A stretch of DNA of 64,000 nt from Escherichia coli (GTDB lineage Bacteria; Pseudomonadota; Gammaproteobacteria; Enterobacterales; Enterobacteriaceae). The notes below the pieces were generated by a model that saw only the letters and a list, made by a program, of their open reading frames with translations, had not been told where the DNA came from and ran no database searches. Below are positions 35,523 through 40,682 of the stretch, one piece after another. The stretch lies in NCBI RefSeq assembly GCF_041886205.1, contig NZ_CP169029.1. The stretch is one strand, 5' to 3'. The first letter of the stretch is position 1. The number at the start of each line of letters is the position of its first letter. A program made the translations under genes and the position numbers.

Positions 35523-38057
35523 TTAATTACTACCAAACATATCTTTAATCCAACCGGCTACACCGTCGCTGTCTTTCTGCTCTTGCTGAGCAGGTTGCTG
35601 TTGCGGCTGTTGCTGCGGCTGAGAAGACTGATCAAACGGATTGCTTGACGGCTGCTGCTGCATCTCACTCTGCTGGCACAGCGATTGCGGATCGCTGGTC
35701 CAGACCGGCAAGACACGCATGCCACCGCTGCAAACAAAGTTGCCGTCGTAGTCCACGCCCATATCTGCAATATCTTCTGGCGGAACAAGATTCAGCGGTG
35801 TTGGCGTCTGGTTAGCCAGATAACGCTGATAAATCGACATTGCCCCGCTGGCTCCATACAGTTTGGTCGGCTGGTTGTTATCACGGCCTACCCAGGTGAT
35901 GGTCACCGTGCTGCCGTCAATGCCCGCAAACCAGGTATCTACGTTATTGTTAGTAGTCCCTGTTTTCCCTGCCAGATGCAGGTTCGGGTATTTCGCCCCA
36001 AGCTGACGACCCGTACCGCGTTGTACCACCTGCTGCATGGTCCATAGTGTCAGATACGCCGCCTGCGCCGGAACAGCGCGTTCCGCCTGCGGGAAGCTCT
36101 GATACAGCACTTTGCCATCTTCCGCGATTACCGAACGCAGCGCAGAAAGCGGTGCACGGTTACCGCCGCTGGCGATGGTCTGGAATGCCTGCGCCACTTC
36201 GATTGGCGTTAAGTTCAACGCCCCCAGCAGCATCGCCGGAACCGGATGCAGCTGATCTTTCGGCACGCCCAGTTTGATCCAGGTCTCCGTAACCGCAGGC
36301 AGCCCCAGTGCCATCCCCAGATTTACCGTCGGCACGTTCATCGAACGGGTCAACGCATCCACCAGCATCACTCTGCCACTTTCGCTATAACGACGATCAT
36401 CGTTCTGCGGTGACCAGACCTGGCCATTCGGCTGACGCAGCGCGATTGGCGCATCCGCAATCCACGTGTTCAGGCGATAGATTTTCGGCTGGCTTAAGGC
36501 AGTCAGATAAGTCGCTGGTTTTGCAAGGGAACCAATCGAACGACGCGCCTGCATCGCACGGTTGTAGCCCGCAAACTGCGGCTCAGAACCTCCGACCATC
36601 GCACGAACTTCACCACTAAAGCGGTCGACGACCACAATCGCGGTTTCCAGATCGCTCAGCTTACGCTGTTTCTTCAGTGCCGGAATGCCTTCCACGGCGG
36701 CTTTTTCTGCCGCGTCCTGGGCCACCGAGTCAAAGGTAGTGAAGATCTTCACGCCGGACAGATCTTTTACCTTATCGCCTAATTTCTCCTGCAACTCCTG
36801 ACGCACCAGTTGCATAAAGGCTGGCTGTGGAGAGATTACCCCACCGCGCGGCTGTACGCCCAGAGGACGCGCGCTGAGCATTTCATACAGTTCACCATCG
36901 ATAATCTGCTGTTGTTGTAGCAAACGCAGCACCAGATTACGTCGCTCCAGCGCCAGTTTCGGGTTACGCCACGGGTTGTAGATGGACGCCCCTTTCACCA
37001 TGCCAACTAACAGCGCCTGCTGGTCAAGGCTCAACTCTTCTACCGGGCGACCAAAGTAGTACAGGCTCGCCAGCGGGAAGCCACGAATTTCGTTGTCGCC
37101 GCTCTGACCGAGATACACCTCATTCATATACAGCTCAAGAATGCGATCTTTGCTGTAACGCGCATCCATGATCAACGCCATATAGGCTTCGTTCGCTTTA
37201 CGCCAGTAAGAGCGCTCGCTGGAGAGGAACAGGTTTTTCACCAGCTGTTGCGTCAGCGTACTCGCACCCTGCACCGTGCGACCTGCGGTCAGGTTTGCCA
37301 GCACCGCACGTCCGATGGAGTAGAGACTGATTCCATCATGCTCGTAGAAATGGCGGTCTTCTGTCGCCAGCAAAGTATCCACCAGCAAATCCGGGAAACC
37401 ACTGCGCGGCACAAACAAACGCTGCTCACCGTTTGGTGAGGAGATCATGGTGATCAGGCGCGGATCAAGACGGAAGAAACCGAACTGACGGTTGTTCTCC
37501 ATATTGACGATCGTCGCCAGATGATCGCCATCAAAGGTCAGACGCGCGCGCACCTGTCCTTCTTTACTGTCCGGGAAATCAAACGGACGGCGAATCATCT
37601 CAATGCTGTTGGCCTGCACGGTAAATTCGCCAGGACGGGTCATTTTTGACACCTGACGATACTGGGTTGCCTCCAGCAGCTTCACCATCTCGTTCTTGCT
37701 GATGGTCATGTCTGGCTCAAGGTTGACCATTCGGCCATAAACTGCCGCAGGCAGTTGCCAGACCTTGCCATCAATACGGCTGCGAATTTTTTGATCGAGA
37801 TAAACGCCGTAAATGGCGATCAGCACGGCAAAAACGATAGCCAGTTTTAACAGCAGCCATAGCCAGCCGCGTTTGCCACGAGGCTTACGCCCTTTGCCTT
37901 TGCCCTTACCTTTGCGCGGCATCGGTTCTTCATCCTCATAGTCATCATAATCGTCGTAATCATCGTCATCTTCGTAACGACGACGGCTTACCTTTTGTTT
38001 GACCGGACGCGTCGGTTTCCCTTTGCGTCCAATTGGCTCGCGGTCATTCCCGGCCAT
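35523..38057 (-). CDS. mrcB: penicillin-binding protein 1B (bifunctional glycosyltransferase/transpeptidase), 844 aa
   Basis: Start at [14 protein letters not shown] (ATG 38057, GGAG RBS); acidic [15 protein letters not shown] tract, glycosyltransferase and transpeptidase motifs. Confidence 0.9.
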
Positions 38058-38153
38058 GCTTTTTCTCCGCAATATTCAGGCGCAAAAGCCCGATTTTCTG
38101 TTCTTCTGTTACAAGACAGAAGAAGATATCTCTCAAAATTTGTGCTCGATCGG

Positions 38154-38242
38154 TCCCCTCTCCCTTAAGGGAGAGGGTTAGGGTGAGGGTGAACGTGCGC
38201 GCTGATGCCCTCACCCCGGCCCTCTCCCACAGGGAGAGGGAG
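38154..38242. repeat. GC-rich palindromic extragenic repeat cluster (boxC/REP-like)
   Basis: Three adjacent dyads: cctctccc-ttaa-gggagagg, gggtgaggg...ccctcaccc, ccctctccc-acag-ggagaggg in the mrcB-hrpB spacer. Confidence 0.6.
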
Positions 38243-38252
38243 AAAACCAACC

Positions 38253-40682
38253 TTACGAATACTTTTTCGTCCGTCGCGTCGGTGCCGTGTTTGCCGGGTC
38301 GTCCGGCCAGACATGTTTGGGATAACGCCCTTTCATCTCTTTTTGCACCTCACGGTACGCTCCTTTCCAGAAGGCGCTCAAATCTCGTGTGATTTGTAAT
38401 GGCCTTTGGGCAGGGGAAAGCAACTCCAGCACCAGCGGCACGCGCCCCTGGGCGATCGTCGGATTGGTGGCCTCACCAAACATCTCCTGCATTCTCACCG
38501 CCAGCGCGGGCGGGTTATCTTCATGATAACGAATGGCGATCCGGCTTCCCGTCGGCACAGTGTAATGCGCAGGCAATTCACTATCCAGACGTTGCTGCAT
38601 TCCCCAATCAAGTAATCCGCGTAGTGCCTGATAAATGTCGAGTGATTTCAGGCCGCGTAGTGAATGCACGCCGGTCATATGTGGCAGCAGCCACGTTTCC
38701 AGCGTCGCCAACAAACTTTCATTATCAACCGCAGGCCAGTCATATTCCGGCAACCACTTTGCGGCGCATAACAAACGCAAGCGTAGCTGTTCCGCTTCCG
38801 CCGTCCAGTTGAGCACGCTTAAACCTTTATCACTAATGCCGTTAAGCATCGCCTGATGCAACTCGTCTTCTGACGGTTTCGCCAGTGGCTGCACTTTCAC
38901 CGTCAGCTGACCGATTTGCAGCCGACGCCAGGCTTTCAGCGTACCTTGCGCGTCATCCCACTCCACAGTGTCAGACTGCTGTACCAGCTGCGGGCAGCGT
39001 TGTACTAACTCATCAATATCGACCGGCAGCGCCAGTAAAATCCGCGCATCCGGCGAGGCGCTGCCCTGCAATAATAACGGTGCGATCAACCATTCGTGGC
39101 GGCTTAGCGCATCGTCGGCATCGAGCATCGCTCCCATGCCGTTTGCCAGTTGATAGCGTCCATCTTGCCCACGGCGATGAGCAATGCGATCGGCAAACGC
39201 CCCGGCAAGTAGCGGCGCGATAAGCGAACTGTCTGCCTCTCCGCCGCGTACGTTTAAGCGTTTTAACAGTTGCTGACTACGTTGCTGCCAGGCTGGTTGA
39301 TTGCGCGAAAACGCCACGCCCAGGTCACTATTGCCCATCCGTGGCGGCTCTTCGAGAATGGCGGCAATTTTTGCCGCGGTAGCAGCTTCGTCGTCGTTCT
39401 TTGCGCTAACCAGCATTGCCGCTAAACGCGGATCGTTACCCAGCGCTGCCATTTTTTGCCCCTGCGCACTAAGCCGTTCACCGTCCAGCGCCCCCAGCAT
39501 CTTTAACAGGCGTTTCGCGGCCAGTAAATTCACTGCTGGCGGTTGATCCAGCCAGCTCATCTGCGCCGGATCGCTGCATCCCCATTGCAGTAATTCCATC
39601 AGCAAACCGGAAAGATCGCTTTGTAAGATCTCCGGTTCACTTTGCGCGGCAGCGCGTTCTGCTTGTTCTTTGGCGATTAAATGCAGGCTGATACCCGGCT
39701 CCAGACGCCCGGCGCGCCCGGCACGCTGCGTCATCGACGCCTGACTGATTCGCTGAGTAATCAACCGCGTAAGCCCTGTTCGCGGATCAAAACGCGCCAC
39801 CCTTTCCTGGGCACAATCCACCACCAGACGAATACCTTCGATGGTTAAACTGGTTTCAGCAATATTGGTCGCCAGCACCACTTTGCGCATCCCTTGCGGT
39901 GCCGGAAGGATCGCTTTTCGCTGATCGTTCAGCGACAACGCGCCATACAGCGGGCAGAGCAACACATCACTGCCGATACGCGAAGCCAGTTGTTCCTGCA
40001 CACGCTGAATTTCTCCGACGCCTGGTAAAAATAACAGTAATGATCCACTTTCCTGACGCAGCATTTCAGCGGTGGCTACCGCAACGGCTTCGTCAAAACG
40101 CTGATGCGCGGGCAGCGGTAAATAACGGCGTTCAACCGGAAACGAGCGCCCTTCTGAGATGACGACGGGCGCTTCTGGTAGCATTTGTTGCAAGCGGTCG
40201 TTGTCCAGCGTAGCCGACATAATCAGCAGTTTAAGGTCATCACGCAGACCTTGTTGCACATCGAGTAACAGCGCCAACGCCAAATCCGCCTGCAAGCTAC
40301 GCTCATGAAATTCATCAAGGATCACCAATCCAACACCGCTCAACTCCGGGTCACGCTGGATCATCCGCGTCAGCACGCCTTCGGTAACTACTTCCAGGCG
40401 GGTATTCGGCCCGACGCAGTTTTGCGCACGCATCCGGTAGCCAACGGTATCGCCTGGCTTTTCGTTAAGCAGCTCCGCCAGCCGTTGCGCGACGTTACGC
40501 GCCGCCAGACGACGCGGCTCCAGCAGGATAATTTTCCCGTTAATGCCGGGATGCGCCAGCAGTTGCAGCGGCAGCCAGGTTGATTTCCCGGCCCCGGTCG
40601 GCGCACTTAATAATACCTGCGGCGCATAATCGAGAGCGGTAAGTAATTCAGGTAAGACGGCAGCAACGGGCAACGACGACAC
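38253..40682 (-). CDS. hrpB: ATP-dependent RNA helicase HrpB (DEAH-box), 809 aa
   Basis: Walker A APTGAGKST, DEFH box; start assigned to GTG 40682..40680 (VSSLPVAAVLPELL..., read as M); the ORF-track start at 40727 is probably too long. Confidence 0.85.
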   Translation of the reverse strand: MSSLPVAAVLPELLTALDYAPQVLLSAPTGAGKSTWLPLQLLAHPGINGKIILLEPRRLAARNVAQRLAELLNEKPGDTVGYRMRAQNCVGPNTRLEVVTEGVLTRMIQRDPELSGVGLVILDEFHERSLQADLALALLLDVQQGLRDDLKLLIMSATLDNDRLQQMLPEAPVVISEGRSFPVERRYLPLPAHQRFDEAVAVATAEMLRQESGSLLLFLPGVGEIQRVQEQLASRIGSDVLLCPLYGALSLNDQRKAILPAPQGMRKVVLATNIAETSLTIEGIRLVVDCAQERVARFDPRTGLTRLITQRISQASMTQRAGRAGRLEPGISLHLIAKEQAERAAAQSEPEILQSDLSGLLMELLQWGCSDPAQMSWLDQPPAVNLLAAKRLLKMLGALDGERLSAQGQKMAALGNDPRLAAMLVSAKNDDEAATAAKIAAILEEPPRMGNSDLGVAFSRNQPAWQQRSQQLLKRLNVRGGEADSSLIAPLLAGAFADRIAHRRGQDGRYQLANGMGAMLDADDALSRHEWLIAPLLLQGSASPDARILLALPVDIDELVQRCPQLVQQSDTVEWDDAQGTLKAWRRLQIGQLTVKVQPLAKPSEDELHQAMLNGISDKGLSVLNWTAEAEQLRLRLLCAAKWLPEYDWPAVDNESLLATLETWLLPHMTGVHSLRGLKSLDIYQALRGLLDWGMQQRLDSELPAHYTVPTGSRIAIRYHEDNPPALAVRMQEMFGEATNPTIAQGRVPLVLELLSPAQRPLQITRDLSAFWKGAYREVQKEMKGRYPKHVWPDDPANTAPTRRTKKYS

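Follow-up and report, generated by a model that had tools for sequence, protein, structure and literature searches.

The window, by which we mean the whole 64,000-nucleotide stretch of Escherichia coli DNA that was analyzed, contains on its minus strand an open reading frame whose translation is an 844-residue protein (Table 1). Its Pfam domains follow the order PBP1_TM (residues 1–79, 88 bits), UB2H (113–197), Transgly (209–379) and Transpeptidase (473–714), which is the architecture of PBP1b, and the orthologous position between hrpB and fhuA together with near-identity to E. coli mrcB place the gene as the one for PBP1b. RefSeq labels the matching region mrcB in 5,424 of 5,426 complete E. 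coli genomes, again with hrpB and fhuA as neighbors. The first 198 nt of the window gene show no difference from K-12 MG1655, and the LHM10-1 genome is 100% identical to the window over a 601-nt query. PDB chains of PBP1b align to residues 53–804, the solved structures starting at residues 53–58.

Ahead of the membrane-anchor helix lies a tail of alternating charge. Residues 1–14, including R6, P8, I9, G10 and R11, match K-12, and judged by sequence the window protein would carry the reported FtsA-binding peptide; the motif of this peptide is conserved in the Enterobacterales hits. The acidic tract that follows is a run of 17 uninterrupted Asp, Glu or Tyr residues, far beyond chance. Its composition recurs in 106 Enterobacterales species (D 48%, E 28%, Y 13%), among which its length varies from 10 to 29 residues with a median of 16. 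Despite 85 distinct tract sequences in the species comparison, both the D/E/Y composition and the +8/−13/+8 charge layout are conserved. Among the hits, the tract is missing from the Vibrio, Pasteurellaceae and Buchnera homologues. The recent study of the alpha tail (PMC13423804) does not discuss the acidic tract (the word 'acidic' occurs 0 times), no specific role of the acidic Asp/Tyr tract was addressed in the literature searched, and a search on phosphotyrosine and mrcB, that is, on tyrosine phosphorylation of Asp-Asp-Tyr motifs, returned nothing relevant.

Table 1. Features at the 5′ end of mrcB in the window. Allele counts refer to 5,424 complete E. coli genomes.
Feature	Position	Strand	Basis or remark
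mrcB (ponB) CDS, alpha PBP1b, 844 aa + stop	35523..38057	−	Translation, RefSeq annotation of identical or near-identical DNA, Pfam domains
Shine-Dalgarno (SD) GGAG for alpha, 7 nt ahead of the primary start ATG 38057..38055	38065..38068	−	Anti-SD duplex scan, −6.6 kcal/mol
Codons 1–14, conserved alpha-only N-terminal peptide, reported FtsA binder	38016..38057	−	Identical to K-12; function from PMC13423804
First basic segment, residues 11–27	37977..38027	−	Residues 1–27 net charge +8
Acidic Asp/Glu/Tyr tract, residues 28–44, net charge −13	37926..37976	−	DNA is an imperfect repeat of 9-nt period
GATGAT (Asp32-Asp33)	37959..37964	−	One GAT lost in 179 genomes, and in 11 more together with the Lys-Gly deletion
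9-nt Asp-Tyr-Asp unit GATTACGAC	37953..37961	−	Deleted in one genome, CFS3292
UGAGGAU, SD-like element of the internal start, formed by the acidic-tract codons Tyr40-Glu41-Asp42	37932..37938	−	Anti-SD scan; same or stronger element in other genera
ATG of Met46, start codon of gamma PBP1b	37920..37922	−	Sequence and literature; start codon kept in 100/107 species
Second basic, Lys/Gly-rich juxtamembrane segment, residues 47–64, common to both isoforms	37866..37919	−	Residues 45–64 net charge +10
GGCAAAGGCAAA	37893..37904	−	One GGCAAA (Lys-Gly pair) lost in 132 genomes, and in 11 more together with the Asp deletion
CCUCGU (Pro59-Arg60 codons), predicted partner of the internal SD	37878..37883	−	Prediction only
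Membrane-anchor helix, about residues 65–87	37797..37865	−	Hydrophobic run; Pfam PBP1_TM match on residues 1–79

From codon 2 to codon 77 the reading frame holds a single ATG, GTG or TTG, namely codon 46. At −16 to −10 from this ATG stands the SD-like UGAGGAU, with a duplex energy of −6.1 kcal/mol against the anti-SD; 11 nt separate its GAGG core from the ATG, a spacing longer than optimal. The gene has the arrangement of a dual start, with an in-frame internal start codon and an SD-like element upstream of it. Because the amino-acid sequence alone nearly guarantees such a match, which does not exceed that in 47% of synonymous resamples, the element says little about whether the SD is under selection in E. 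coli itself. A weak test for an internal promoter of a gamma-specific transcript found no sigma-70-like or terminator-like site in 37800–38400. The first-pass annotation of this DNA had described an N-terminal acidic tract followed by Met46 and a Lys/Gly-rich stretch in mrcB, and had suggested that in-frame initiation at Met46 would give the shorter PBP1b isoform. The layout is as described (codons 28–44 are acidic, and KGKGKGKG follows Met46), the ATG lies at exactly the position given, and the suggestion agrees both with the UGAGGAU element and with a published Ribo-RET peak and M46L mutant. Where it had allowed that an initiation signal at Met46 might be missing, we find one that compares in duplex energy with that of the primary start.

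We retrieved 120 species loci using the N-terminal peptide motif as the search pattern and compared 107 species representatives. A start codon stands at the acidic/basic boundary in 100 of these 107 Enterobacterales species (ATG in 69, GTG in 27, TTG in 4), the counts being over species that are not phylogenetically independent, with most GTG cases in Erwiniaceae. Two of the seven exceptions are algorithm misses, and five species (loci L053, L058, L118, L142 and L145) are apparently without any boundary start codon. Of 28 boundary Val codons, 27 are GTG (6 of 6 in a first, smaller comparison), whereas elsewhere in the gene GTG makes up 53% of Val codons; where Leu serves as the start, in four species, it is encoded by TTG. 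SD complementarity exceeds that of synonymous-codon resamples in 82 of 100 species and is strongest ahead of the non-ATG starts, at −9.0 kcal/mol for GTG and −8.9 kcal/mol for TTG against −6.0 kcal/mol for ATG. Among these related species, conservation of the internal start goes further than the protein sequence would demand.

The DNA of the tail is repetitive, though imperfectly. Tandem Repeats Finder reports a repeat at 37930–37977 (period 9, 4.0 copies, 77% matches, score 44; at period 18, score 54) and, within the Lys-Gly tract, a repeat of period 6 at 37891–37915 (4.2 copies, 78% matches). Perfect repeats are short, GAT twice and GGCAAA 2.3 times, and synonymous third-position changes distinguish the units. 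Each length variant in Table 1 has lost, in frame, a single copy of a short direct repeat, and the indels spare both start codons and the SD. The reference length is present in about 94% of the 5,424 genomes (5,089 have it with at most one SNP), about 12 genomes are without an assigned tail allele, and alleles expanded by 9, 6 or 3 nt are absent from the whole set. Outside its 9-nt deletion, the CFS3292 allele has 0 SNPs relative to K-12. The first-pass annotation had called this DNA a near-tandem GAT/GAC/TAT repeat, a fair label because Tandem Repeats Finder confirms an imperfect repeat of period 9, and had expected it to be prone to slippage and length variation. Repeat length is indeed not invariant among the complete E. 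coli genomes, about 6% of which carry one-unit in-frame losses; the variation is modest and runs only toward loss, and the Asp-Asp-Tyr repeat to which attention had been drawn lost its 9-nt unit once, being changed in only 1 of 5,424 genomes.

The Lys-Gly deletion occurs on mrcB alleles that are 122–130 SNPs apart, and reference-length alleles lie 6–25 SNPs from deletion alleles. The mrcB backgrounds that lack one GGCAAA are divergent and number at least two and probably three, a distribution that fits recurrent slippage. It could also reflect recombination of a short 5′ segment, and the single-gene neighbor-joining tree is not robust.

The two forms of PBP1b have a long history. Kato, Suzuki & Hirota (1984) and Broome-Smith et al. 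(1985) gave the original accounts of alpha and gamma from two start codons, and Ribo-RET evidence on the K-12 isoforms comes from Meydan et al. (2019). The Ribo-RET data place mrcB among the E. coli genes with a previously characterized internal start and show a peak there (10.1101/520783). In Salmonella mrcB the internal start also shows a Ribo-RET peak, both forms are conserved, and the extension is 42 aa (PMC11005335). Gamma PBP1b initiates at the second start codon, Met46, and the M46L substitution removes gamma and leaves alpha only; two PBP1b bands are seen, at 94.2 and 88.9 kDa, and the alpha-specific septal recruitment of PBP1b depends on R6 and FtsA (PMC13423804, 2026). Initiation at Met46 in the strain studied here is supported by these published K-12 and Salmonella data together with sequence identity.

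We consider it about 95% probable that E. coli mrcB, whose 5′ end lies here, is translated from two in-frame starts on one mRNA to give alpha and gamma PBP1b, that codons of the acidic tract supply the SD-like element for gamma, and that rare alleles arise by in-frame slippage. Initiation at codon 1 would produce alpha PBP1b, with a 64-residue cytoplasmic tail that is in turn basic (+8), acidic (−13) and Lys/Gly-rich basic (+10). Initiation at Met46 would produce gamma PBP1b, which would keep the juxtamembrane segment only, so that, going by the published work, it would be without the FtsA-recruiting peptide. The GA-rich codons of the acidic tract would themselves provide the SD-like GAGGA for the internal start, and the tract most likely serves in addition as a disordered spacer of negative charge that holds the FtsA-binding peptide apart from the basic segment near the membrane. 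The short imperfect repeats occasionally drop one unit by replication slippage, giving rare in-frame alleles with both starts intact.

A quite different origin of the short form would be proteolytic loss of the first 45 residues of alpha, with Met46 incidental. A third PBP1b form, beta, is attributed to proteolysis by OmpT acting during sample preparation, and the junction between the acidic and basic segments would be a plausible protease site. However, this origin of the short form is already largely refuted: a Ribo-RET peak has been published at the internal start (10.1101/520783), M46L was used to obtain alpha alone (PMC13423804), and the retention of a boundary start codon across species, its GTG/TTG bias and the stronger SD at non-ATG starts form the pattern of a start codon rather than of a cleavage site. 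We regard proteolysis as hardly credible here. The Asp-Tyr and Lys-Gly repeats might also be taken for a hypermutable contingency locus that switches or tunes PBP1b expression between strains, since they are short tandem units inside coding DNA, vary in length in about 6% of genomes and, for the Lys-Gly deletion, do so on divergent backgrounds. Against this stand the absence of long perfect tracts (2 to 2.3 perfect copies, in units that differ at synonymous sites), losses that are confined to single in-frame units with neither expansion nor frameshift, the near-uniform allele carried by most genomes, and the fact that the indels leave both starts and the SD untouched. With about 94% of genomes at one length and only a few in-frame losses, slippage is real but low-level, and a contingency locus is very improbable.

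Within E. coli, the first 198 nt of mrcB stand out as a marked island of nucleotide conservation, and this bears on whether the acidic tract is kept mainly at the nucleotide or RNA level, as the gamma ribosome-binding region and as one element of an mRNA fold controlling the alpha:gamma ratio. Besides the island, this proposal can draw on the SD being made of Glu and Asp codons and on the −39 to +200 segment, which folds with z = −4.07 relative to dinucleotide shuffles and in which predicted helices pair AUG1 with nt 192–200 and the gamma SD with the downstream CCUCGU (a 111-nt local fold gives z = −1.54). Downstream of the internal start, CCTC is found in 35 of 92 sequences against 13.1 expected, and CCT makes up 38% of Pro codons, the background being 12%. 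Yet about 6 nt suffice for an SD, whereas the tract has 51, and what the 85 distinct tracts have in common is composition and charge, not nucleotide or amino-acid sequence. Other 240-nt windows of mrcB reach z of −3.0 to −3.3, and over 44 species the stability of the tails does not exceed that of synonymous-codon resamples (mean z +0.18); we do not regard a selected 5′ RNA structure as established. The duplex between the SD and the downstream element shows no overall trend across species (mean z −0.27), standing out only in the Escherichia/Salmonella/Citrobacter/Klebsiella group (z −1.7 to −2.6). Cross-genus codon identity in the tail is only slightly raised, at 0.71 against 0.65, and cross-genus synonymous constraint on the tail was rejected on this ground. 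Searches against known RNA families gave only sub-threshold hairpin hits, all in the intergenic palindrome. Maintenance of the tract mainly at the RNA level seems improbable to us. It is tempting to speculate that the first ~200 nt of mrcB are under nucleotide-level purifying selection, synonymous sites included, through an RNA element that sets the alpha:gamma ratio, the candidate pairings being AUGAGG (nt 119–124) with CCUCGU (nt 175–180) and AUG1 with nt 192–200; this too is doubtful. If it were true, translation would be a point at which to tune how much of the PBP1b is targeted to the septum, and the alpha:gamma ratio might differ in the natural alleles with the Asp or Lys-Gly deletion.

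The two-start interpretation of mrcB is textbook biology, and its appearance here is a rediscovery rather than a new lead: the two start codons were recognized 40 years ago and later confirmed by ribosome profiling, and a 2026 publication gave the alpha-only tail its function, septal recruitment through FtsA. As a discovery it carries little weight; its value is as a calibration, in that a real dual-start site was recognized from raw sequence. Three small quantitative results are left, namely the spectrum of tail alleles in 5,424 E. coli genomes, the retention of the internal start across Enterobacterales even where Met is replaced, with GTG or TTG and a stronger SD, and the conservation island over the 198 nt that encode the tail.

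Several known systems share parts of this arrangement. Like the simple-sequence contingency loci of Haemophilus and Neisseria, mrcB has short tandem units in coding DNA and length differences between strains; unlike them, its repeats are imperfect (at most 2.3 perfect copies), variants occur in about 6% of genomes, and the changes are in-frame single-unit losses with no on/off switching. In the Gram-positive class A PBPs that bind GpsB, a short cytoplasmic tail likewise directs division-site localization through a divisome-associated protein (PMC13423804). The partner there is GpsB, whereas for PBP1b it is FtsA, and the tail sequences are unrelated. We know of no dual start or acidic tract in those GpsB-binding tails. 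infB (IF2 alpha/beta) and clpB share the mechanism, two N-terminal proteoforms from one ORF by way of an internal SD and start, as seen by Ribo-RET (10.1101/520783). Their proteins are unrelated to PBP1b, and in mrcB the two forms differ by 45 residues of disordered cytoplasmic tail, carried by a membrane enzyme, instead of by a folded domain.

The closest systems are the mrcB genes of K-12 and Salmonella Typhimurium. With K-12 the window shares the hrpB-mrcB-fhuA synteny, both start codons, the SD-like element, the acidic tract and the Lys-Gly tract, whereas downstream its allele differs by 83 SNPs over 2,316 compared sites; the amino-acid differences are few, such as Ser in place of Gly in the C-terminal QQQPS(S/G)NPF, and none falls in the tail. 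Salmonella Typhimurium MrcB (PMC11005335) differs in its shorter acidic tract DDDYDDDYEDEE, its alpha-only extension of 42 aa as against 45 and its having one Lys-Gly unit fewer, but shares with the window the internal ATG, the identical upstream context gatgactatgaggatgaagaaccgATG and the basic-acidic-basic tail.

The gene encodes PBP1b. Essentially all complete E. coli genomes carry an mrcB annotation (bifunctional glycosyl transferase/transpeptidase) on the same DNA with hrpB and fhuA as neighbours, one on each side, and the window protein has the Pfam architecture of PBP1b (PBP1_TM, UB2H, Transgly and Transpeptidase). Translation confirmed the acidic tract and the Lys/Gly-rich stretch after it, which the first-pass annotation had described in the N-terminus, and the position given there for the Met46 ATG is exact. 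All solved PBP1b structures begin at residue 53-58, so the tail is never visible in them.

Positions of features in and around mrcB.
Feature	Window position	Strand	Basis or detail
mrcB ORF, 844 codons	38057..35523	minus	translation
Acidic tract, codons 28-44	37976..37926	minus	translation
Met46 codon ATG	37922..37920	minus	translation
Lys/Gly-rich tract	directly after Met46	minus	translation
Conservation island, first 198 nt	37860-38057		
Imperfect arrays, period 9 and 18	37930-37977		Tandem Repeats Finder
Imperfect array, period 6	37891-37915		Tandem Repeats Finder
Possible 10-bp hairpin, CDS nt 73-97	37961-37985		CGUCGUCGUU with GAUGACGAUG
Acidic tract, +1 frame	37930-37975		many ATG codons, from GATGAC...
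Insertion in HCM-28C-2, codon about 74	about 37835-37837		3 nt
Gln/Pro-rich C-terminal tract, residues 796-843	about 35529-35672		
Spacer palindrome	38154-38242		GC-rich, imperfect
Palindrome arms	38169-38189 and 38208-38228		86% complementary
Palindrome outer arms			CCCTCTCCCT / AGGGAGAGGG

The same annotation had proposed that the repeat could be prone to slippage and length variation, to be checked by comparison across strains. We searched 5,424 complete E. coli genomes with the reference allele and each variant allele. Tail length is not invariant: one GAT of GATGAT (one Asp) is missing in 179 genomes, one GGCAAA (one Lys-Gly pair) in 132, both in 11, and the 9-nt Asp-Tyr-Asp unit in 1 (CFS3292); about 12 genomes fall outside these classes. 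Every length variant preserves the reading frame, both start codons and the Shine-Dalgarno element (SD). In-frame one-unit losses are thus real, but they are a minor feature: 5,089 genomes have the reference length, as their identity to the reference over the first 198 nt is 99% or higher. A query with 9 and 6 additional nt matched nothing better than the reference allele in the 5,424 genomes, so none of them carries an expanded allele. We rejected the idea that the repeats form a contingency locus, given that perfect repeats reach at most 2.3 copies and one length prevails in 94% of genomes.

Among 18 full-length alleles, the Lys-Gly deletion lies on backgrounds 122-130 SNPs apart. HM670, of reference length, differs from deletion strains by 6-8 SNPs, LD93-1, a deletion strain, differs from the window allele by 25, and the CFS3292 allele is identical to K-12 apart from its 9-nt loss. 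This pattern favours recurrent one-unit slippage as the probable origin of the length alleles, with short-tract recombination the less favoured source of the recurrent deletions.

An unexpected by-product of this survey is a 5' island of nucleotide conservation, in which E. coli genomes vary far less than in the remainder of mrcB. Identity to the window over nt 1-198 is 99% or higher in 94% of genomes (5,089/5,424), but over two internal 198-nt mrcB segments this holds for only 6% (339/5,423) and 4.5% (246/5,423). Among the 18 alleles, nt 1-198 contain 4 variable sites, whereas 198-nt stretches of the remaining gene contain 12-37 and those of the 3'-terminal 594 nt of hrpB 23, 14 and 23; it is synonymous variation that the island lacks. 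We tested RNA structure as a possible cause of the island. The segment from -39 to +200 folds with z = -4.07, its predicted helices pairing AUG1 with nt 192-200 and the SD of the short isoform with a downstream CCUCGU, and CCTC and the CCT Pro codon are enriched. However, z also reaches values near -3 in other segments of mrcB, 44 species showed no excess stability over synonymous resamples, and codon identity across genera is only slightly raised. The test of the SD-to-downstream duplex reached significance only among Escherichia, Salmonella, Citrobacter and Klebsiella.

Outside the tail, the window mrcB is unusually divergent from K-12 (83 SNPs in 2,316 sites), and within a segment of the transpeptidase domain 1,044 genomes share only 80-90% identity with it, which suggests that E. 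coli mrcB has deeply diverged or recombinant allele classes. The Gln/Pro-rich C-terminal tract also varies in length, AGR5151 lacking 9 nt (GCAACAGCC) there; the C-terminal 48 residues score 23.6 bits against Pfam FtsA_C, below the cut-off of 27.4. In HCM-28C-2, an insertion in the transmembrane segment gives a protein of 845 aa.

The hrpB-mrcB spacer contains a palindrome in 3,897 of 5,425 genomes, measuring 195 nt with it and 93 nt in the other genomes sampled. The palindrome has further copies at other genomic sites (median 2 places per genome), and an Rfam search returned only sub-threshold hairpin matches. Its features suggest an intergenic repeat, presumably box C-like.

Met46 is the sole in-frame ATG, GTG or TTG in codons 2 to 77 of the window mrcB. 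Upstream of it, UGAGGAU (-16 to -10), encoded by the acidic tract's own Tyr-Glu-Asp codons, pairs with the 16S 3' end at -6.1 kcal/mol; the GGAG upstream of the primary start reaches -6.6 kcal/mol. In E. coli, 47% of synonymous resamples do at least as well as the native element, whose presence is therefore almost ensured by the acidic residues. We compared mrcB 5' ends of species representatives, fetched with a degenerate DNA pattern for the conserved N-terminal 13-residue motif. At the acidic-to-basic boundary, the 107 usable species, which are related, have in frame ATG (69), GTG (27, mostly Erwiniaceae), TTG (4, including a Leu codon in Rosenbergiella and Tatumella morbirosei) or none (7, two of them misses by the window rule used). 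Val at the Pro-Val-Pro position is encoded by GTG in 27/28 cases (6/6 in an initial smaller comparison), vs 53% for Val codons elsewhere in these genes. Upstream SD complementarity beats synonymous-codon resamples in 82/100 species (-6.9 vs -5.2 kcal/mol) and is clearly strongest at the weaker start codons (GTG -9.0, TTG -8.9, ATG -6.0). At the sequence level, this is the pattern of a used start site; start-codon retention, the GTG bias and the stronger SD at non-ATG starts would not be expected of a cleavage site. Five Enterobacteriaceae loci (L053, L058, L118, L142 and L145, including Pseudescherichia vulneris and Escherichia sp. ESNIH1) have Ala-Pro-Ala-Pro, Lys-Pro-Arg-Ser or a GTA Val at the boundary, without ATG, GTG or TTG, and may make only the long isoform.

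The acidic tract spans 10-29 residues (median 16) in 106 species, with 48% Asp, 28% Glu, 13% Tyr and usually 2-3 aromatic residues. Because it has 85 distinct sequences yet a stable tail charge layout of about +8 / -13 / +8 (E. coli +8 / -13 / +10), composition and charge, rather than sequence, are conserved. Among the matches, the homologues from Vibrio, Pasteurellaceae and Buchnera have no acidic tract, their tail being basic only or missing. The tract would fit a disordered acidic spacer that separates the FtsA-binding peptide from the juxtamembrane basic segment, a role not addressed in the PBP1b isoform literature examined, PMC13423804 included. Its first Asp codons (GAUGACGAUG) could form a hairpin with the preceding Arg-Arg-Arg codons (CGUCGUCGUU; local fold z = -1.54), whose last pair the common Asp deletion takes away. 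Frameshifted database proteins reading MTMKTMRMKNR... through the tract (matches P0016, P0027 and P0067) probably arose from errors in sequencing or assembling the repeat.

The dual-start biology of mrcB is already established, as is the acidic tract/Met46 arrangement. The proposal that internal initiation yields a shorter isoform is supported by the SD-like element, by M46L (Met46 to Leu), which produces alpha (long) PBP1b alone (PMC13423804), and by ribosome profiling, the check suggested for it: Meydan et al. (10.1101/520783) count mrcB among the E. coli genes whose internal start had been characterised before, and give its Ribo-RET (initiating-ribosome) profile. The coding regions of alpha and gamma (short) PBP1b overlap (Kato et al. 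1984 and Broome-Smith et al. 1985, as cited in PMC13423804). A 2026 Nature Microbiology paper (PMC13423804) found septal enrichment limited to alpha PBP1b, requiring its N-terminal peptide (R6) and probably also FtsA. Since nt 1-198 are identical to K-12 MG1655, these isoform results should carry over to the window mrcB. Salmonella has the same mrcB proteoform pair, with an extension of 42 aa (Fijalkowski et al., PMC11005335).
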